Shown: piece after piece, positions 2,634 to 60,522 of the stretch
Position numbering within the stretch: the stretch's first letter is position 1
How the letters are laid out: each line of letters opens with the position of its first letter
Source: Escherichia phage phita32
Strand: one strand, 5' to 3'
Sequence record: PQ758395
Length of the DNA: 64,000 nt
Position numbers and translations under genes: made by a program
The notes under the pieces: model-generated
What the model was told of the DNA's origin: nothing
Seen by the model: the letters and a program-made list of their open reading frames with translations, nothing else
Database searches by the model: none

Positions 2634-4124
2634 GTGGCTAAGTATGGATTGACAGAGGCTGGTTTCGTTATACCAACCCTAAATGACCTAATCGTTGAAA
2701 CTAAGCAAAGCCTGATCCGTGCTTTTGGCGAAAACTTCAACGTACAGAGTAACTCCGTTGCAGATAAGCTGACCACTATCTTCAACGAGCGAGAGTATCA
2801 ACTTATTCTTATGGCAGCATCTGTATACGCATCACAGACGCTGTATGGGGCAGAAGGTATCTACCTAGATGAGCTTCTTGGAAGACAGGGTATTTACCGA
2901 AGAGGCCGTTCTAAATCATCAGGTACCTGCCAGTTGACAATCAACACAACTGTGCCGTACAATATGATTTATGATTCCAAAACTTATACGCTGGACAGTG
3001 GCAACTTTGTTCTTAGCAACGATGTGCAAGTAGCAGGGAATCTTATTGCTCACAGAATAAATGCTCCAGACCTAAGGATTGGGAAATACAACTTCCAAAT
3101 TACCAACCAGACAGATGGAAGTATCAAAACAAAAAGCCTGGTTTTAACAGATAAATCTCTGGACTCTTCTGATTTGCCAAGCTTTTACGGAGAGATTAAG
3201 CAATTCATTGTCGATAATACAACCCTGTTGAACGACGATTTGATTCAGATCGATATGTTGACAGGAACGTTGTGGATAGGGTACAATTCGAATCTTGATC
3301 AAGTTGGACTTAACAGTAGGGTAGATTTCAGAGTATCCCCGATTGTAGGGGAAAGAACTATCACACTGGATGTTATCGCTAACGAGGCTGGTGAGCTGTC
3401 AAGAGAAGCAGAAACCGTGACAACAATGTCACCTACTCCTAGTGGATTTATCAAGCTTACCAACCGAGAAAGATTCAATGAGGGCAGGGATGTTGAGAAA
3501 GACTCAGAGTATCGCTTAAGAGCTTCCAGCACAAAACAGTTAACATCTAAGGCTACCCGTCCTGCAATCCTTAGCGCTGTAAGCGAGGTGAAAGGTGTTG
3601 AGAAAGTGAGAGTGTTCTCCAACAACACCGATAAAACTGATGCTAAAGGTATACCTCCTTACAAGTTCCAAGTGGTTGTGTTTGGTGGTGCAACGGAGGA
3701 CATTTGCCAAGCACTTTACCAAACTATAGCCTGTACGAACAGGACTTATGGTAATATTTTCTACGATGTCACTACATCTGACGGTCAAACTGAAAGAATT
3801 TATTACTCCAAGGCAAACACCTACCGCCTAGATGTAAGAATTACCTACTCCGGTGCTGCGCTTTCTACAACCGAAAAAGATGCCATTATAGAGGCTCTTT
3901 TGCAGGTTGTTAACGGACTGGATGTTGCAGATACGTTGTATAATATCCAATTGGTAGGTGCTGCATCTGCTGCTGTGTCAATAGGCAGATTTAATAGACT
4001 GGTAATTCAAGTTAAATCCGTAGGAGCTTCTGATGAAGCTTACACTACAAACGATATTGTTGCGAACATGACCGAGGTGTTTGACCTCGACGAAAGTAAT
4101 ATAACTTTCCAACAAACTATTTAA
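2634..4124 (+). CDS. Tail/baseplate structural protein (496 aa)
   Basis: GTG start with GGAGG RBS; position directly after the J-like gene; N-terminal region loosely reminiscent of baseplate-J-type proteins (not verified). Confidence 0.4.
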   Translation: MAKYGLTEAGFVIPTLNDLIVETKQSLIRAFGENFNVQSNSVADKLTTIFNEREYQLILMAASVYASQTLYGAEGIYLDELLGRQGIYRRGRSKSSGTCQLTINTTVPYNMIYDSKTYTLDSGNFVLSNDVQVAGNLIAHRINAPDLRIGKYNFQITNQTDGSIKTKSLVLTDKSLDSSDLPSFYGEIKQFIVDNTTLLNDDLIQIDMLTGTLWIGYNSNLDQVGLNSRVDFRVSPIVGERTITLDVIANEAGELSREAETVTTMSPTPSGFIKLTNRERFNEGRDVEKDSEYRLRASSTKQLTSKATRPAILSAVSEVKGVEKVRVFSNNTDKTDAKGIPPYKFQVVVFGGATEDICQALYQTIACTNRTYGNIFYDVTTSDGQTERIYYSKANTYRLDVRITYSGAALSTTEKDAIIEALLQVVNGLDVADTLYNIQLVGAASAAVSIGRFNRLVIQVKSVGASDEAYTTNDIVANMTEVFDLDESNITFQQTI

Positions 4125-4135
4125 GGCGGCGAGAT

Positions 4136-4822
4136 ATGGCAGAGATTAAGTCGGATGTTAACCACATCCACACTCTGCCAGATTTTGTTCAGGGAGGTCT
4201 TGACTACCTACCTGGAGATTTTCTGGCTGAGAAGGTTAATTTAGTCACATTCTTAACCGTATACCTTAAAAGGTTGGAGGATGTTGATAAGATGCTGGTA
4301 GGTTTGGCTGAAGGAAGATTGCTTAACAATGCCAGCGGAAGATACCTTGACGAAGTTGGTAATCAACTTGGTATTCTTAGGAATGGACTTTCAGATGCTG
4401 ATTTTCGTGCCACACTAATTATTCAGCAGGCCGCAGCATCAAGGGGCGGGACTCGCGAAGATGTCATCTCCACCTTGCGACAATTGTTCGGAAGAGACAA
4501 TTTCGATACGTGGAAAGGAGACAACTTCAGGTTTGACATAAATATTAGAAAAACTTGCTTTGACATATTGCAGTCTATCGATCAGATCTTAGATATGCTA
4601 CCATTACCTTGTCATTTGCGTCTTACAGAATCGCAAGGGCAAGCTTTTGGTTTTGAAGGGGACTCTACAGCTCTTGGCTTCGGATCAGTGTGGGAAGAAA
4701 ACCAATTCGGAGTTGGTGGGCTGGCTACTTTGCTATATGTTCCTGACGTAAGACCTGATTGGGACACCACAACCATTTATTGTGAAAGTATTACAGTAAA
4801 CGCAACTAGACAGGAGGGTTAA
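4136..4822 (+). CDS. Tail/baseplate structural protein (228 aa)
   Basis: ATG with GGCGG/GAG RBS-like upstream; co-oriented in the tail operon. Confidence 0.35.
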   Translation: MAEIKSDVNHIHTLPDFVQGGLDYLPGDFLAEKVNLVTFLTVYLKRLEDVDKMLVGLAEGRLLNNASGRYLDEVGNQLGILRNGLSDADFRATLIIQQAAASRGGTREDVISTLRQLFGRDNFDTWKGDNFRFDINIRKTCFDILQSIDQILDMLPLPCHLRLTESQGQAFGFEGDSTALGFGSVWEENQFGVGGLATLLYVPDVRPDWDTTTIYCESITVNATRQEG

Positions 4823-27080: not shown

Positions 27081-27383
27081 GTGGCAAGGATGCCACTTAA
27101 AAGAGTAATAAACATGTTATACCAGAAACACGAACTTTGTGTAGAAAAAGAGTTAAATTTTGACAAAGTTATCCACCGATATTGTTATGGGAAAACCAGA
27201 AGACAACTAAGAAGGTGTGCTCCAACATTCTTTCACCCCAGTAGACGGCTAAGTCCTGAAGAGGCGACAGCAGAAAGGGTTGCATACAACTGGGAAGTTG
27301 TGTACGATATTGACAGATCCGATGTGACATCTGTTTTGGAAAACTTTGAAAACACTTACACACAAGTAGAGGACTTTTACTAA
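27081..27383 (+). CDS. Hypothetical protein (100 aa)
   Basis: ORF (GTG start in track). Confidence 0.3.
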   Translation: MARMPLKRVINMLYQKHELCVEKELNFDKVIHRYCYGKTRRQLRRCAPTFFHPSRRLSPEEATAERVAYNWEVVYDIDRSDVTSVLENFENTYTQVEDFY

Positions 27384-28567
27384 TGTCAAGAAACGTATTT
27401 GAAAGTGGTCAAATCACTGTCCGTGAGTTGCCAGCTATCATTCAGTTTGCCCAGCGTCATAACCGATCTGTCCTGATTTTAGGACCAATGGGTGTGGGAA
27501 AGAGTCAGGTGATGAAGCAGATCGCTGATAATATGTTCGGTGAGCGAGATGACAACCTGGTTGACGTGCGGCTGTCAGATAAAGATCCTGCCGACTTATC
27601 TGGGCTACCTATCCCTGTAGAAGCGGATGGAACTACACGTACAGTGTTTGCAATTCCAGAATTTTGGCCTGCAGATCCGGACTGGAGCGGAATTATCTTT
27701 CTGGATGAGCTTACTCATGCAGATAACTACCTGCAAAAGGTTGCAATGCAAATTATGCTCGACCATAAGTGCGGCACCTATGCATTCCCTAAAGGCTCTG
27801 TTTTTGTGGCTGCGGGTAACCGTTCTACAGATGGTGCGGTTCTTTCGGCGCTCGAAGCTCCTCTGGCTAACCGCTTTATCATTGTAGAAGTTACAAGCAA
27901 TGCAGAGGTGTTTATTGAGGACTACGCATTCCTTAATGGGGTTCACTCCTCTGTAATTGGGTATCTGAAAAGAGTTCCATCAGCTATTGATAATTATGAG
28001 GCTATGGCTGAGATTAATTGTCCATCTTTTGCCACACCACGATCTTGGGTTGCTGCATCTGACATCTTGCACGATTTTGACAGCGGTATTATTTCTGACG
28101 CTATGGCCCGTGTTCTTCTGCAAGGTGCTATTGGTCACACTGCAGCGGTAGAGATCTGGACATACCACACCAAGAAACGCAATTTACCGGAAATCGGTCG
28201 GATTATGGCAGGTGGTTGCAAAGAATACGTAGGTCCTAAGCAGCCAGACATCTTGTGGATTCTTGGATCTGAAGGTTGTATCGCTATTCGCAATATGATG
28301 GAAAATGCAAGTATCTCCGACGAAGATCTTGTTAGCTGTGTGGCAAACTTCCTCGATTTCCTTTGGGAAAATTTCAAGGACGAGAACCGAGATTTTGTAT
28401 TCTCAGTCTTTATGGCGATGATGAAACCTAACGCCTTAGGAAATGCCTTGCTTATCGGTAAAGGGCGTGACAAGATCGTTGCTCAACTGATCAAAGCATA
28501 CCCAAACCTGATGAAGATTGTAAAAGAGTTTGGTGAAGAGTTTAGCGCCATTTTAGCTAAAGCTTGA
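27383..28567 (+). CDS. AAA+ ATPase (MoxR/AAA_5-like)
   Basis: Walker A LILGPMGVGKSQV; Walker B IIFLDELTHA; sensor/arginine region VAAGNRS. Confidence 0.6.
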   Translation: MSRNVFESGQITVRELPAIIQFAQRHNRSVLILGPMGVGKSQVMKQIADNMFGERDDNLVDVRLSDKDPADLSGLPIPVEADGTTRTVFAIPEFWPADPDWSGIIFLDELTHADNYLQKVAMQIMLDHKCGTYAFPKGSVFVAAGNRSTDGAVLSALEAPLANRFIIVEVTSNAEVFIEDYAFLNGVHSSVIGYLKRVPSAIDNYEAMAEINCPSFATPRSWVAASDILHDFDSGIISDAMARVLLQGAIGHTAAVEIWTYHTKKRNLPEIGRIMAGGCKEYVGPKQPDILWILGSEGCIAIRNMMENASISDEDLVSCVANFLDFLWENFKDENRDFVFSVFMAMMKPNALGNALLIGKGRDKIVAQLIKAYPNLMKIVKEFGEEFSAILAKA

Positions 28568-28576
28568 GGAGGTTGT

Positions 28577-28957
28577 ATGGCTAAAGTAGGTAAGCGGGGA
28601 AACTACCTGGTGGTATTGACCGAGGAGCCGGAGAAGGAGTACGAATGCAGCTCCACTTGCGTGATCGATATCCGAGAAAAGGATGTGGATGAAATCTGGT
28701 TTGAAATATTAGACGCTTGCGACAGCAGTGATTATTTCTTCATCTATGTCAACGATAAGGCTGGATTCTTCCATGACGACGGAGAGTTGCCATATGAAAT
28801 CTATGAACTTGTAGAGGCTTGCCATCGTGGAGATGCGGAGTTGTTTGGCCTACGGCTGAAAAGCGGTAAATTCTTCTATCAAGATGAGTGCATGAATCTT
28901 CATAACTTTGTAGAAGGAACTTGCAACGATGGAGAGATTTTGGCACACTACGATTAA
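28577..28957 (+). CDS. Hypothetical protein (126 aa)
   Basis: GGAGG RBS; terminator follows. Confidence 0.35.
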   Translation: MAKVGKRGNYLVVLTEEPEKEYECSSTCVIDIREKDVDEIWFEILDACDSSDYFFIYVNDKAGFFHDDGELPYEIYELVEACHRGDAELFGLRLKSGKFFYQDECMNLHNFVEGTCNDGEILAHYD

Positions 28958-28968
28958 TTTCTAAGACA

Positions 28969-28995
28969 CCCCCGCTTCGGCGGGGATTTTCTATT
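28969..28995 (+). terminator. Intrinsic terminator (CCCCGC-TTCG-GCGGGG + T-run)
   Basis: Same stem-loop type as at 2537; followed by ATTTTCTATTT. Confidence 0.6.
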
Positions 28996-29005
28996 TGGAG
29001 TTATT

Positions 29006-29506
29006 GTGAAAATTAAGATCTTTGCTATTATTTTGAGCGCATTTTTATCGCTGCCTGTTGTTGCAGCACCAAAGCAAAAAGTATATCATACTTGCAAGCC
29101 ATCGGATACTAAGGAAAACATTCTGGCATGCAATATCTACAGAGAAGCTAGAGGTGATGGCACGATGAGTATGCTGGCATCTGGGTTTGCCACACTGAAC
29201 AGGAAATCCCACCCTAAATACCCAGACACTATAAGAAAGATTGTCTACCAACCTAACCAGTTTTCGTGGACAAACCACGGCAAAACTTTTAAGGTGACAG
29301 AAAAAGATTCATGGGATCACGCTAAAAGTCTTGCAAAGATGCTTCTAAAGGTCTATAATAACAACCATGTTGCATACATGGCTATGGACATAACAGGTGG
29401 AGCAACACACTACCATACAACCAAAGTACGACCGAAATGGGCAAAAAAGATGCAGAGGACAGCTCAATTCGGGAGTCATATCTACTACAAGGAGCGCAAT
29501 AAATGA
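29006..29506 (+). CDS. Secreted cell-wall hydrolase, SleB/CwlJ-like (signal peptide)
   Basis: GTG start with GGAG RBS; N-terminal signal peptide (KIFAIILSAFLSLPVVAAP); motifs NIYREARGD..VYQPNQFSW..ATHYH characteristic of the SleB/Hydrolase_2 family. Confidence 0.55.
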   Translation: MKIKIFAIILSAFLSLPVVAAPKQKVYHTCKPSDTKENILACNIYREARGDGTMSMLASGFATLNRKSHPKYPDTIRKIVYQPNQFSWTNHGKTFKVTEKDSWDHAKSLAKMLLKVYNNNHVAYMAMDITGGATHYHTTKVRPKWAKKMQRTAQFGSHIYYKERNK

Positions 29507-31485
29507 TTGTAAACAGTAATGAAACTAAAGCAGTACTAACCGGAAATATGGAGGTCACCAGGGGCTCAATTTCTCTGAACAAGGAGACTTTTGGGCTAAT
29601 CATTAAAGGGATTTACGAAGATAAGGTGCTGGCAAGCTGCCGTGAACCAATCTTCAATGCTGTGGACTCCCATGTTGAGTCTGGACGGGGTGATGTACCG
29701 ATCATCATTCACTCTCCTACAGACCTTGAACCATACTTCTTTGTGCAGGACGTTGGATTAGGTATGTCAGAAGAGATGGTCCGCAACACTTTCATGAACC
29801 TCGGGGAGTCAACCAAGCGCAACAGCAACGCTCTGGTAGGTAATAAAGGTGTTGGTTCGAAGGCTCCGTTCAGCATGGTGGACACTTTCGATGTGATCAG
29901 TGTGCACAATGGTGTTGAAAGCACATATCTATTGTTCTTGGATCAGGGTATCCCAAACGTTACCAAGATCCGCGAGCGGAAGACTGAAGAGCACAATGGG
30001 GTAAAAGTTCAGTTCCATGTTAAGAAAGAGCATGTTCTGAAATATCGCACTGCTATTGCATCATGCCTACGCTATGCAAAGTTTCCGTTTACCGTTACCG
30101 ATCCTATGACCAATAAGATGCTGGAAGGTGACAAGGTTGAGGCGCAGTATCGCTACGAGAAAGATGGTTGGAAAATGACCATCCTAAAGGGTTATACCAG
30201 CTCTGACGAGAGTCGCGTGGTAATGGGACACCAACCTTACCGCTCTAAGTTTCTGGAAACATTGACAGACTACCCTGCAATCTGTGTAGAGATCCCTATC
30301 GGGGATTGCAATATTAACCCTGGGCGCGAATGGACCATAGAGGGTCACGACGATGGTGGATTCCAAGAGCGTCTGGAGGCTTTTGTCAAAGAGGGTATCC
30401 GTCTTCGTGGGGCAGAAGTTGTTGCGGAATTGGAAACAGCAAAAACATCCTCAGAAGCACGCGAGATGATGAAGAACAGTGGAGTGTTCGGGCACATCTT
30501 CGGCAAAAACTTTATGTGGAACCGTTGGGAAGAAACAGGACTTGGCGACTTAGGCGATTGTGAAATTTTCGCTGGCGGCTTAAATAAAGGCCGCATAGGC
30601 TATGCTCGTTACGGAAAGTCGGAGTTCTTACGAGGTGTATACCTTGTATTTAACGACGGGGACGGCAAATATAACCGAAATAAGTGTAACTACCTAAGTG
30701 AGATCACCGGACGCAACGTTTTCTATTGCCGGAACACGGATCTGGTGAAAGAGTTTAAAGAGGCGGCACACCATCCGTTCTTTGCAGATACGGTCAAATT
30801 GTTATCAGAGCTCCCTCGCCGACCTGTGAAGAAAGGTGAAACAAAAACTCATTATGAGCCAGGGTATTGGGTTAAAAAACTTGAGAAGGATGGTTACTTC
30901 CGTCGTGAACGTATTACTAAGGCAGAGTTCAAAAAGATTAAGCACTGCATTCCTTATGAGGGTGATATCCAACGTGGAAGTTGTTGGCTGGGACAGCTGA
31001 GTAACATCTACCAGCAAAATTATGACCGTGTGCGTGCGGCACTCCAGATTCCTGAAGGGGAAGACCTGTACCTGGTATCAGAATCCCGTCTGCTTTGGAC
31101 TGATCCTGATTGCCAGTATGTTACAGAGAAGAGTGTGGAACATTTGTTGAAAGAGGATGCTTGGAAATTCTTACTAACTCGCGCAGCAAATGAAACTTCA
31201 TATGACAGCCTGTATAGACAATTAGGGAAAATTATCCCCATGCAAGATTTTGGAAATTATCGACCACATTTCCACAAGTGGGAAGGTAACACCGCGTGGA
31301 AGCATAGTGAGCTAAATCATCGTGCCAAAATCTTAATCGCCAACCGAGTCAAGTGCGGGAAGGCCTATATTGCAAGATTGGAAAAGAAATATCCGCTTTT
31401 GAAGCATGTAGGCTTGAAATATTGGGACACTCCTGCTATGATTGAATACCGTGAACTGATTGACACAAAGAATAACACCAACTAA
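29503..31485 (+). CDS. GHKL-family ATPase (660 aa)
   Basis: N-box EPIFNAVDS, G1 box VQDVGLGMS, G2 box GNKGVGSKAPF in the order of Bergerat-fold ATPases (Hsp90/MutL/MORC-like). Confidence 0.5.
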   Translation: MIVNSNETKAVLTGNMEVTRGSISLNKETFGLIIKGIYEDKVLASCREPIFNAVDSHVESGRGDVPIIIHSPTDLEPYFFVQDVGLGMSEEMVRNTFMNLGESTKRNSNALVGNKGVGSKAPFSMVDTFDVISVHNGVESTYLLFLDQGIPNVTKIRERKTEEHNGVKVQFHVKKEHVLKYRTAIASCLRYAKFPFTVTDPMTNKMLEGDKVEAQYRYEKDGWKMTILKGYTSSDESRVVMGHQPYRSKFLETLTDYPAICVEIPIGDCNINPGREWTIEGHDDGGFQERLEAFVKEGIRLRGAEVVAELETAKTSSEAREMMKNSGVFGHIFGKNFMWNRWEETGLGDLGDCEIFAGGLNKGRIGYARYGKSEFLRGVYLVFNDGDGKYNRNKCNYLSEITGRNVFYCRNTDLVKEFKEAAHHPFFADTVKLLSELPRRPVKKGETKTHYEPGYWVKKLEKDGYFRRERITKAEFKKIKHCIPYEGDIQRGSCWLGQLSNIYQQNYDRVRAALQIPEGEDLYLVSESRLLWTDPDCQYVTEKSVEHLLKEDAWKFLLTRAANETSYDSLYRQLGKIIPMQDFGNYRPHFHKWEGNTAWKHSELNHRAKILIANRVKCGKAYIARLEKKYPLLKHVGLKYWDTPAMIEYRELIDTKNNTN

Positions 31486-31495
31486 GGAGACCAAG

Positions 31496-32701
31496 ATGAT
31501 TTTCATCTACGAACATTTCAAAACTCGTAAAGAAGCACGTGACCGCCGTGCAGAACTTGAGAAGAAGGGTTTCACATGTGCCATTGAGAAAGGTGATACA
31601 ACCTGGACACTGGCAGTTGGTGCCCCAGAGTTGTTCGATCCTGACCGTGACAGCGTCTGCTACACCCGTGAGGATTTTGAAACCCGCGAAGAGGCCCGTT
31701 TATTTCGATATGGGCTGGAAGATAACGGTAAGTACGCCATGATCTTAGACTTAGGCGAAGGTTCCGTTAAACGTTGGGGTGTGGTATACCCACTGTGCGT
31801 TGTTCACGGTGTGGGGTTCACTGGGGTAGCAATCAAGTCAGAAGAACCTTCAGTAGAAGTCAAAGATCCGGTGCTGCAGGTAGTAAGCAGTGTGTCTCAA
31901 CAACAGACTCGAAGCATAGAGCCTTTAGTAGTTATTTGTGGAGAACTTCTCCAGATCACCTGCAACGAAGGCATTTTTGAAATTCGCCGCAGCGAAAGTG
32001 AGGAAGTTTACCAGAAAGTCTTCGACCATATCTCTGTTCAGGAATATGACGAGGCAATTGGTGAAATCCTTGTCTGGTTGGAACGCAAGAATGAGTTCAC
32101 TACACTTGCAGACAACCTGATTATGAAAGATGGTAAGCTCTATTACTACGGTGTAGAGATGCAATCTACCATTGCAAAGAAAATTGAGGAAGATTATGTA
32201 GATGGAACACTGGACGACCGATATGTTAAATTCCTTGTCCGTCTGCTACGCAACCCGTCTGCAAAATCTGTGAACATGCTCTACGATTTCATGCAGGCTA
32301 ATGACATCCAGGTTGCAGAAGATGGTCGAATCATTTGCTATAAGGGGGTTCAGTTTAACGGAAGCAAGTGGGTGGATTGGCACAGCGGTAAAGTTCCACA
32401 ATACCAGGGTGCTTTTGTATCCATGCCTCGTAACTTTGTAGAAGATGATCCGGAAGCTGCGTGTTCTTATGGCCTGCACTGCGCCAGCAAAGAGTATGCA
32501 GCGGGCTATGGCACCGTAATGATGGTTATGGTTGACCCTGCGGATGTGGTTAGTGTGCCATACCAACACAACAGTGCTAAGTGCCGTGCATGCCGCTACG
32601 AAATCGTAGCAGCACCGGAATCACGCAAAGATGGCGATCCGATTGAATACGTAGTTGATCGTGACGGTAACACTATCGACATTCTTTACGAGGAGGCGTA
32701 A
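31496..32701 (+). CDS. Hypothetical protein (about 401 aa)
   Basis: ATG at 31496 with AAGGAGA RBS right after the upstream stop; the track start at 31460 overlaps the upstream gene. Confidence 0.4.
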   Translation: MIFIYEHFKTRKEARDRRAELEKKGFTCAIEKGDTTWTLAVGAPELFDPDRDSVCYTREDFETREEARLFRYGLEDNGKYAMILDLGEGSVKRWGVVYPLCVVHGVGFTGVAIKSEEPSVEVKDPVLQVVSSVSQQQTRSIEPLVVICGELLQITCNEGIFEIRRSESEEVYQKVFDHISVQEYDEAIGEILVWLERKNEFTTLADNLIMKDGKLYYYGVEMQSTIAKKIEEDYVDGTLDDRYVKFLVRLLRNPSAKSVNMLYDFMQANDIQVAEDGRIICYKGVQFNGSKWVDWHSGKVPQYQGAFVSMPRNFVEDDPEAACSYGLHCASKEYAAGYGTVMMVMVDPADVVSVPYQHNSAKCRACRYEIVAAPESRKDGDPIEYVVDRDGNTIDILYEEA

Positions 32702-50398: not shown

Positions 50399-50588
50399 GC
50401 TTAAATCTGCATGGAACATCGCTGTGGGGGACGAGATCCGCATCCCAGGTGGAAAGACCATTATGAAGATATCACGTATCGAGTATGAAGGTGATCGTGT
50501 ATTTCATATCTTTGCAGAAGATGGCCGAGAAATTTATATACAGGCAGGCTCTCACATCTATATCCGTAAGAAAGGGGACGACAAATGA
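50385..50588 (+). CDS. Hypothetical protein (67 aa)
   Basis: AGGAGGG RBS; overlaps the neighbour. Confidence 0.35.
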   Translation: MQMFKLKSAWNIAVGDEIRIPGGKTIMKISRIEYEGDRVFHIFAEDGREIYIQAGSHIYIRKKGDDK

Positions 50589-50917
50589 CAGAGATCATCG
50601 TTTCAACTGCAGGGTATGTATTCCTGACAATCATTGCGCTGGCTATTCTGGTGGCGGTGTATGGATTTGTTATCCTGCCTATTCTTGAGACATTTAGTTT
50701 GTGTCGGTGCTGGAGAAAAGCTTACGGACCACAACCGTGGAAAGACTGGTTCCATTTGGTGCGTATAGCGTTCTCTTATGCCTATGACCACTCTAGCAGT
50801 GCATGCGTAACCGGGTACCATGCCTACAACTGGAACTGGGAAGGGCTGGGGAGATGGACTGTTACAAAAACTATACCCTTACGGTTGTATAAAGGAAAGA
50901 ACACACTGGGAGCCTGA
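50585..50917 (+). CDS. Hypothetical membrane protein (110 aa)
   Basis: Two hydrophobic helices at the N-terminus; Cys/Trp-rich tail. Confidence 0.35.
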   Translation: MTEIIVSTAGYVFLTIIALAILVAVYGFVILPILETFSLCRCWRKAYGPQPWKDWFHLVRIAFSYAYDHSSSACVTGYHAYNWNWEGLGRWTVTKTIPLRLYKGKNTLGA

Positions 50918-56508: not shown

Positions 56509-56536
56509 AGGCGGCGGCATATTTGCCGCCTTATTG
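56509..56536 (+). terminator. Intrinsic terminator (GGCGGC-ATATTT-GCCGCC + T-rich)
   Basis: GC stem followed by TTATTGTT. Confidence 0.5.
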
Positions 56537-56566
56537 TTAAACAGAACTGTAAAAGAGGTACATAGA

Positions 56567-56926
56567 ATGGAATTTATTATTCTGACTGTATTAGTTGCCT
56601 TGTTCAACGCCTGGATCGCTGGCAAGGTAGGCAGATCCGCTTTCTTATGGTTTATTATATCTATTTTCCTGGGAGTGGTTGCAACTATCATATTGGTTAT
56701 CCTTGCAATTGTTGACAAAGGTAATAATAGAAAGGGTAAAGTATTTTCCGACCTGTATGACGCACAAACGTTCGTCAACGCCTATTATGGTGATCTCCCG
56801 GTATCCCTACGCTGCAGCCTGGCACAACAGGTTTTTGATGAAGCTAAAACCAGAGATCAAGCCCATGAGATATGTTTAACTGAGGCGGATCGCCTATTTG
56901 AGAGGAATAGAAAATATGTGGGCTAA
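56567..56926 (+). CDS. Early membrane protein (about 119 aa)
   Basis: ATG after AAAGAGG RBS; two predicted transmembrane helices. Confidence 0.4.
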   Translation: MEFIILTVLVALFNAWIAGKVGRSAFLWFIISIFLGVVATIILVILAIVDKGNNRKGKVFSDLYDAQTFVNAYYGDLPVSLRCSLAQQVFDEAKTRDQAHEICLTEADRLFERNRKYVG

Positions 56927-60381: not shown

Positions 60382-60522
60382 ATGAGAAAGATAATCATCA
60401 CCTTGGGGATTGTGGTAGCAATATTGGCGCTCTTTCCCCTTATGGTTAGATATGTGCTGATACGTGCTGTTCTAGTGGTCAGCGATCTGGTGTTATATAT
60501 ATATATTAACTTACTGTTTTAG
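60382..60522 (+). CDS. Small hydrophobic peptide (46 aa)
   Basis: ATG 2 nt after the upstream stop; very hydrophobic; no clear RBS. Confidence 0.2.
   Translation: MRKIIITLGIVVAILALFPLMVRYVLIRAVLVVSDLVLYIYINLLF

Follow-up and report, generated by a model that had tools for sequence, protein, structure and literature searches.

Several phage endolysins are secreted or of the SAR type, among them Lys44 of Oenococcus phage fOg44, Lyz of phage P1, and R21 of phage 21. These enzymes cross the inner membrane by the Sec route without a large-hole holin, and each is the sole endolysin of its phage, shares a lysis cassette with the gene of a holin or pinholin, and belongs to the late genes. The SleB-like hydrolase described here, from Escherichia phage phita32, is predicted to share the Sec passage with them but has none of the latter three properties. 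In Bacillus, SleB acts as a germination-specific lytic transglycosylase, and true SleB requires the muramic-δ-lactam of the spore cortex, which is absent in E. coli. A glutamate of SleB is essential for this lytic transglycosylase activity (PMC12331253). The phage gene itself is already known: it corresponds to rV5 gene 2, which adjoins rIIA (rV5 Table S3), it has been annotated since the rV5 genome, and its conservation in all Vequintavirinae genera was published in 2020 together with a signal peptide in the Certrevirus homolog CB7_83 (Buttimer et al., PMC7344957). CB7_83, which is 45% identical to the hydrolase, was also toxic on expression in E. coli, given as data not shown (PMC7344957). 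We propose, with moderate confidence, that the hydrolase acts on peptidoglycan in the periplasm as an accessory enzyme of infection and is not the main endolysin.

The window, by which we mean the whole stretch of 64,000 nucleotides that was analyzed (sequence record PQ758395), matches more than 80 full-length genomes of Vequintavirus (rV5-like) phages of E. coli at 96–98.6% identity, with vB_Eco_Alma as the nearest relative. The hydrolase gene lies exactly where the earlier note had placed it and is preceded by a plausible ribosome binding site:

29006..29506, + strand: coding sequence of the 166-aa Hydrolase_2 protein, counterpart of rV5 gene 2, with a GTG start
28997..29000, + strand: Shine-Dalgarno-like GGAG, 5 nt 5' of the GTG, read directly in the sequence

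Across 115 phage records the protein is 95–99% identical, the figure for phage V5/rV5 and for more than 100 Vequintavirus records being 98.8% at the amino-acid level. The copies in rV5 (gp2) and other Vequintavirus phages are the same gene in the same position with no substantive difference. In GenBank, these orthologs are labeled "cell wall hydrolase," "SleB," or "endolysin." The other Vequintavirinae genera encode versions with 39–53% identity to the hydrolase (e.g. CB7_83 of Pectobacterium phage CB7 and CR3_087). Compared with the gene of the relative CarlMeissner, the 12 nucleotide differences fall mostly at third codon positions (10 of 12) and alter just two amino acids. Judged by this comparison and by the conservation in the 115 records, the reading frame is real and not a chance one, and it is under purifying selection. 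The GTG is a sensible choice of start, since the next in-frame Met is residue 54 and a start there would lose the conserved catalytic motif; the N-terminus is also common to the homologs. Non-ATG starts were found in four of the nine homologs examined, namely GTG here and, by translation, TTG in Iguana, NINP13076, and PaulScherrer.

Some database entries begin the SleB-like gene at an internal ATG and thereby drop the signal peptide and the catalytic Glu, apparently as a result of its non-ATG true start. An example is the entry at locus L004, where the coding sequence is annotated at 4148-4531 and the full gene spans 4001-4531; the short-form protein P0003 has 111 aa.

Profile searches matched the protein to Pfam PF07486 Hydrolase_2 (E = 1.5e-18; 67.7 bits, gathering cut-off 27) over profile positions 5-100 of 100, and to PHROG 938 (7.5e-27). 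An exhaustive representative search returned 10,259 homologs at E <= 0.001, and a word-indexed protein search returned 10. In a phmmer comparison with the SleB catalytic-domain structures 4f55 and 4fet (E = 1.9e-5), YREARGD of the hydrolase aligned to YGESRGE of SleB. The AlphaFold2 model, computed from an alignment of 55 homologs, reached a mean pLDDT of 95.9, and a Foldseek search with it revealed the same two structures as the only significant PDB fold matches (E of about 1e-5; TM of 0.75–0.79, normalized to the target). Tyr45, Glu47, and Arg66 were invariant in alignments of 46 and 55 homologs, and Glu47 coincides with the catalytic glutamate of SleB:

29144..29146, + strand: GAA codon of Glu47, aligned with the SleB catalytic glutamate in YGESRGE
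29066..29503, + strand: predicted mature catalytic domain, residues 21-166, about 16.9 kDa, pI about 9.95

By sequence, modeled fold, and catalytic residue, the protein is a member of Hydrolase_2, and it is predicted to cleave peptidoglycan. The resemblance to Bacillus SleB covers the catalytic fold and the glutamate of the Y-x-E-[AS]-R-G motif at an identity of about 23%; unlike Bacillus SleB, the phage enzyme serves a phage of a non-sporulating, Gram-negative host. Against the SleB equivalog profile (NCBIfam TIGR02869), the hydrolase scored 44.7 bits, below the cut-off of 236.5, with a match confined to the C-terminal catalytic part (profile positions 83-201). A second Pfam domain was not found in the protein, and the N-terminal peptidoglycan-binding domain of SleB is absent: ahead of the catalytic domain stand just the signal peptide (20 residues) and about 15 more residues. 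By these profile and domain comparisons, the phage hydrolase falls outside the SleB equivalog group. That it acts on ordinary peptidoglycan is an assumption on our part, since the SleB substrate is absent in the E. coli wall.

The N-terminus of the hydrolase reads MKIK-IFAIILSAFLSL-PVVA|APKQK and has the layout of an export signal, in which a basic n-region precedes a hydrophobic core of 12 residues and the core leads into a helix-breaking Pro17 and a V-x-A site:

29006..29065, + strand: predicted Sec signal peptide, residues 1-20 (MKIKIFAIILSAFLSLPVVA), from hydrophobicity and motif inspection

The predicted signal peptidase I cut falls after Ala20 (VVA|AP), and motif inspection of the N-terminus revealed no lipobox Cys. 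Our call was made by eye and by hydrophobicity, and by these heuristics the segment has what is expected of a Sec type I signal: a basic n-region, a core within 7–15 residues, small residues at -3 and -1, and no Pro at +1. Among the nearest family representatives, 137 of 160 carry an N-terminal hydrophobic segment, as do all nine homologs read from other phage groups. Together with the PF07486 match and the fold, these features bear out the SleB/CwlJ-type (Hydrolase_2) protein with an export signal that had been read from the sequence at the outset.

An N-terminal hydrophobic segment that runs straight into a catalytic domain could instead belong to a SAR endolysin, in which an uncleaved anchor tethers the inactive enzyme until the membrane is depolarized, and KPP10 ORF143 (Nankokuvirus) has a longer segment without an obvious A-x-A site. 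However, the core of the hydrolase comprises only 12–13 residues (IFAIILSAFLSL), is strongly hydrophobic and not Gly/Ala/Ser-rich, and ends in Pro17 followed by V-V-A|A. In the homologs examined from Vequintavirinae, PaulScherrer, and T5-like phages, inspection by eye showed A-x-A-type sites at the corresponding point. No pinholin partner is adjacent, and a homolog of the partner found in sister genera is absent from the window. A short, strongly hydrophobic core followed by a cleavage motif makes a SAR anchor very unlikely, and the cleavable signal peptide remains the preferred interpretation of this segment.

In support of export, the family displays two patterns of paired cysteines. In the 55-sequence alignment, C30 and C42 occur together in 20 sequences and C39 and C77 in 25; the two pairs are mutually exclusive, and only three of the 55 sequences lack Cys at all four positions. 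The first pair is the Vequintavirinae type, while the second is found in T5-like and most other homologs. From the alignment, the two pairs probably represent alternative disulfides, and such almost perfect covariation suggests an exported protein, as it is the pattern expected of disulfides formed outside the cytoplasm.

The surroundings of the gene were then compared with those of known lysis genes:

27383..28567: MoxR-like AAA ATPase, upstream of the hydrolase
28577..28957, + strand: acidic 126-aa protein of unassigned role, upstream of the hydrolase
28970..28995, + strand: terminator-like GC-rich hairpin CCCCGC-TTCG-GCGGGG, then T-rich ATTTTCTATT
29503..29506, + strand: ATGA overlap of the hydrolase stop TGA with the rIIA ATG, read in the sequence
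29503..31485, + strand: rIIA homolog, 660 aa, with a GHKL-type ATPase domain (PHROG 612, E = 7.6e-125; Pfam HATPase_c_3)
31460..32701, + strand: rIIB, longest reading frame, from a TTG at 31460

The claim that the gene has no holin or spanin pair beside it holds, its neighbors being the MoxR-like ATPase, rIIA, and rIIB. Its description as lying among replication genes needs qualification: the immediate neighbors are the MoxR-like ATPase, the 126-aa protein, rIIA, and rIIB, and the helicase, primase/helicase, and DNA polymerase follow only further downstream, in the same-strand order rIIB, helicase, methyltransferases, primase/helicase, DNA polymerase after rIIA. With the TTG start, rIIB would share its first 26 nt with the end of rIIA, and the start annotated in relatives is the ATG at 31496, 10 nt past the rIIA stop. 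The 126-aa protein was found in 115 records only, all from Vequintavirus and at least 95% identical, and had no match in any other genus or T5-like locus; given this Vequintavirus-only distribution, it was rejected as a conserved partner of the hydrolase. For the same protein, rV5 Table S3, as parsed, gives a homology to T5.083 that was not reproduced here.

The hairpin lies 20 nt ahead of the hydrolase GTG, and its sequence is identical to terminator t003 of rV5 (ΔG of -16 kcal/mol; rV5 Table S4). Our scan revealed no promoter-like site between the hairpin and the GTG; near the gene, the rV5 late-promoter motif was sought and not found, and a generic promoter scan did not rise above the shuffled expectation. 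Since no promoter was detected downstream of the t003 hairpin, read-through, probably from a promoter region about 4 kb upstream, would be needed for the hydrolase, rIIA, and rIIB. The GTG start and the hairpin directly upstream make weak expression of the hydrolase probable, and the hairpin could act as an attenuator that holds a toxic exported enzyme low. The ATGA overlap with rIIA suggests translational coupling. Since no Vequintavirus transcriptome was found in the literature, we infer the timing, early expression, from gene order and from a Pseudomonas phage homolog of about 32% identity.

Expression from a non-late region and these low-expression signals would also suit a protein that is exported but does not degrade the wall in bulk, either because it binds or edits the wall for superinfection exclusion or for a defense aimed at the wall enzymes of other phages or of the host, or because it has little catalysis at all. 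The absence of the SleB substrate in E. coli points the same way. Against this reading, the protein retains every family-invariant residue, among them the catalytic Glu, its gene evolves under purifying selection, and the toxicity of CB7_83 fits an active enzyme. We consider a non-degrading role improbable and retain an active accessory hydrolase as the better description.

The earlier note had raised the possibility of a signal-peptide-dependent endolysin, had named a separate canonical endolysin as the finding that would speak against it, and had proposed a search for a canonical lysis cassette. That search, run in relatives, located a lambda-R-like endolysin, Rz/Rz1-like spanins, and a holin candidate, all away from the hydrolase. 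In CarlMeissner, the endolysin has 156 aa (PHROG 90, E = 2.6e-56; lambda R lysozyme PDB 1am7, E = 1.2e-56) and no export signal, and the spanins lie beside the terminase. The lambda-R-like endolysin was present in all checked Vequintavirus genomes, including vB_Eco_Alma (99.4% identity); the gene lies outside the 64-kb window, and its presence in this genome is deduced from the 96–98.6%-identical relatives. In rV5, the corresponding gp89 was termed the "obvious lysin" (rV5 paper), and LysECP26, the same lambda-R-like endolysin, lyses outer-membrane-permeabilized Gram-negative cells as a purified protein (PMC9728275). The window holds three small reading frames with two hydrophobic segments each:

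50585..50917, + strand: small reading frame with two hydrophobic segments
56534..56926, + strand: small reading frame with two hydrophobic segments, counterpart of the two-TMD "putative holin" bas48_0115 of CarlMeissner (PHROG 13090, function unassigned)
60382..60522, + strand: small reading frame with two hydrophobic segments

For the holin, another protein, the 78-aa gp129, was put forward in the rV5 paper, so that two candidates compete for this role in the rV5-like group.

An active, separate endolysin with spanins by the terminase thus weighs against the proposal of the earlier note, and the hydrolase was found neither near a holin or spanins nor as the sole muralytic enzyme, the contexts in which a canonical endolysin would be placed. 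Its non-lytic alternative, such as wall remodeling, fits the sequence evidence better than a signal-peptide endolysin does. The rival nevertheless deserves a full statement. The hydrolase would be a Sec-dependent endolysin held in the periplasm and activated or released on depolarization, serving as a second or even the primary lysis pathway, with its timing set by the rII proteins or, in sister genera, by a two-TMD pinholin-like protein. PHROG 938 and many GenBank records do label the protein "endolysin," the gene adjoins rIIA/rIIB or is translationally coupled to them, and the toxicity of CB7_83 (PMC7344957) would be in keeping with such a function. Besides the separate lambda-R-like endolysin and spanins, the placement of the gene in a non-late DNA-metabolism unit, which recurs in lineages with full lysis cassettes elsewhere, stands against it. 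Taken together, we regard a Sec-dependent endolysin as unlikely, though worth keeping in view, and continue to favor an accessory enzyme.

Tail-borne wall hydrolases are common in phages, and the hydrolase might accordingly be a virion-associated lysin that breaches the wall at DNA injection. A protein with a Sec signal peptide would, however, exit the cytoplasm, where virions assemble; its gene is located away from the structural module, the rV5 virion proteins identified by mass spectrometry do not include it by name, and baseplate-associated lysin candidates are annotated elsewhere than at the hydrolase locus. This role appears extremely unlikely.

The sister genera provide the evidence that leaves room for an endolysin-type role. 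Directly 3' of the hydrolase gene, Seunavirus, the Klebsiella phage Iguana, Certrevirus, W70, and Kashira encode a 51–80-aa protein with two hydrophobic segments, as seen in five loci of Vequintavirinae-type phages:

L004:4536-4691: two-TMD small gene after the SleB-like gene
L005:4536-4709: two-TMD small gene after the SleB-like gene
L006:4528-4725: two-TMD small gene after the SleB-like gene
L010:4507-4719: two-TMD small gene after the SleB-like gene
L011:4519-4761: two-TMD small gene after the SleB-like gene

These small proteins matched phrog_24442, phrog_10205, or no PHROG, with no function given, and the Certrevirus protein has been put forward as a class II holin candidate (Buttimer et al., PMC7344957). 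The two-TMD follower and the rII link together resemble a lysis module, since in Seunavirus and Iguana the gene order is hydrolase, small membrane protein, rIIA, rIIB, helicase. In Vequintavirus, by contrast, the two-TMD gene was lost or never present and the hydrolase is joined to rIIA by the ATGA overlap; a partner hidden in the window was sought by tblastn and rejected (best E = 0.04), which counts against the Sec-dependent endolysin in this genus. The flanks examined in Certrevirus, W70, and Kashira contained no rII genes near the hydrolase, so the hydrolase–rII linkage is not obligatory, which also counts against the Sec-dependent endolysin.

An exported single-domain Hydrolase_2 gene alongside a separate endolysin was seen or reported in several lineages, including Septuagintavirus and Phapecoctavirus, and the coexistence of the two in Certrevirus and other Vequintavirinae genera has been published (PMC7344957). 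In T5-like phages, the early region carries the SleB-like gene at a long distance from the holin and endolysin genes, and in Nankokuvirus LSL4 its flanks are the DNA ligase and DprA genes, with the annotated endolysin–spanin cassette after the tail fiber genes. The proteins of T5-like phages, Phapecoctavirus/Justusliebigvirus, and Nankokuvirus (e.g. AKFV33 ORF81 and PAK_P3 gp151) resemble the hydrolase in being single-domain Hydrolase_2 members with an N-terminal export segment, and these SleB-like "second endolysin" genes likewise lie in an early or DNA-metabolism part of the genome, apart from the holin, endolysin, and spanin genes. They differ in their identity to the hydrolase (32–40%), in having no rII neighbors, and, for the T5-like copies, in carrying the C39/C77 pair instead. 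Transcription of PAK_P3 gp151, a distant homolog, was detected at 3.5 min, with no significant difference between 3.5 and 13 min, and this early transcription speaks against a Sec-dependent endolysin; its authors considered that gp151 could explain the accumulation of wall precursors in infection. The recurrence of this layout across lineages is the strongest argument for an accessory enzyme that acts before or independently of terminal lysis.

In the proposed mechanism, the gene would be transcribed within the non-late DNA-metabolism unit of the rV5-like phage, and the protein would probably be made at a low level, with its translation coupled to that of rIIA. The product would carry a Sec signal peptide, be exported to the periplasm, and be cut by signal peptidase I after Ala20, and the mature enzyme would probably cleave the glycan strands of peptidoglycan as a lytic transglycosylase by means of Glu47. 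It would thus serve as an accessory wall-modifying enzyme during infection, and the cell burst would be left to the lambda-R-like endolysin, the holin, and the Rz/Rz1-like spanins. We infer the export and cleavage, the bond specificity, the time and level of expression, and the physiological role from the sequence, model, and comparisons given above.

Beyond this, it is conceivable, though unlikely, that the exported SleB-like enzyme is dedicated to conditioning the envelope before lysis and is tied to rIIA/rIIB in rV5-like phages. Were this so, controlled loosening or turnover of the peptidoglycan could set burst size, lysis timing, or precursor supply, and wall conditioning in the latent period or cooperation with rII would extend the textbook lysis pathway by one step. 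The enzyme is shared by the Vequintavirinae, Stephanstirmvirinae, T5-like phages, and Nankokuvirus, which are mutually unrelated, virulent, and infect Gram-negative hosts; several unrelated groups of large virulent phages thus retain, in early or DNA-metabolism regions, a predicted exported wall hydrolase besides a normal endolysin. The residual interest of the locus lies in the possible link between the hydrolase and the rII membrane-integrity proteins and in wall conditioning during the latent period. If true, this would matter for rV5-group phages considered for phage therapy and for enzybiotic screens, which currently list the predicted hydrolase as an "endolysin."

A minor observation concerns host labels. 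Between 16 and 23 records named "Campylobacter phage" (MG065642-MG065682), with Campylobacter jejuni given as host, contain DNA about 96% identical to rV5-like phages and carry the hydrolase gene at 98.8% identity; the record A148 among the "Campylobacter phage" entries matches T5-like phages. The Campylobacter host labels look doubtful, or the preparations look mixed.
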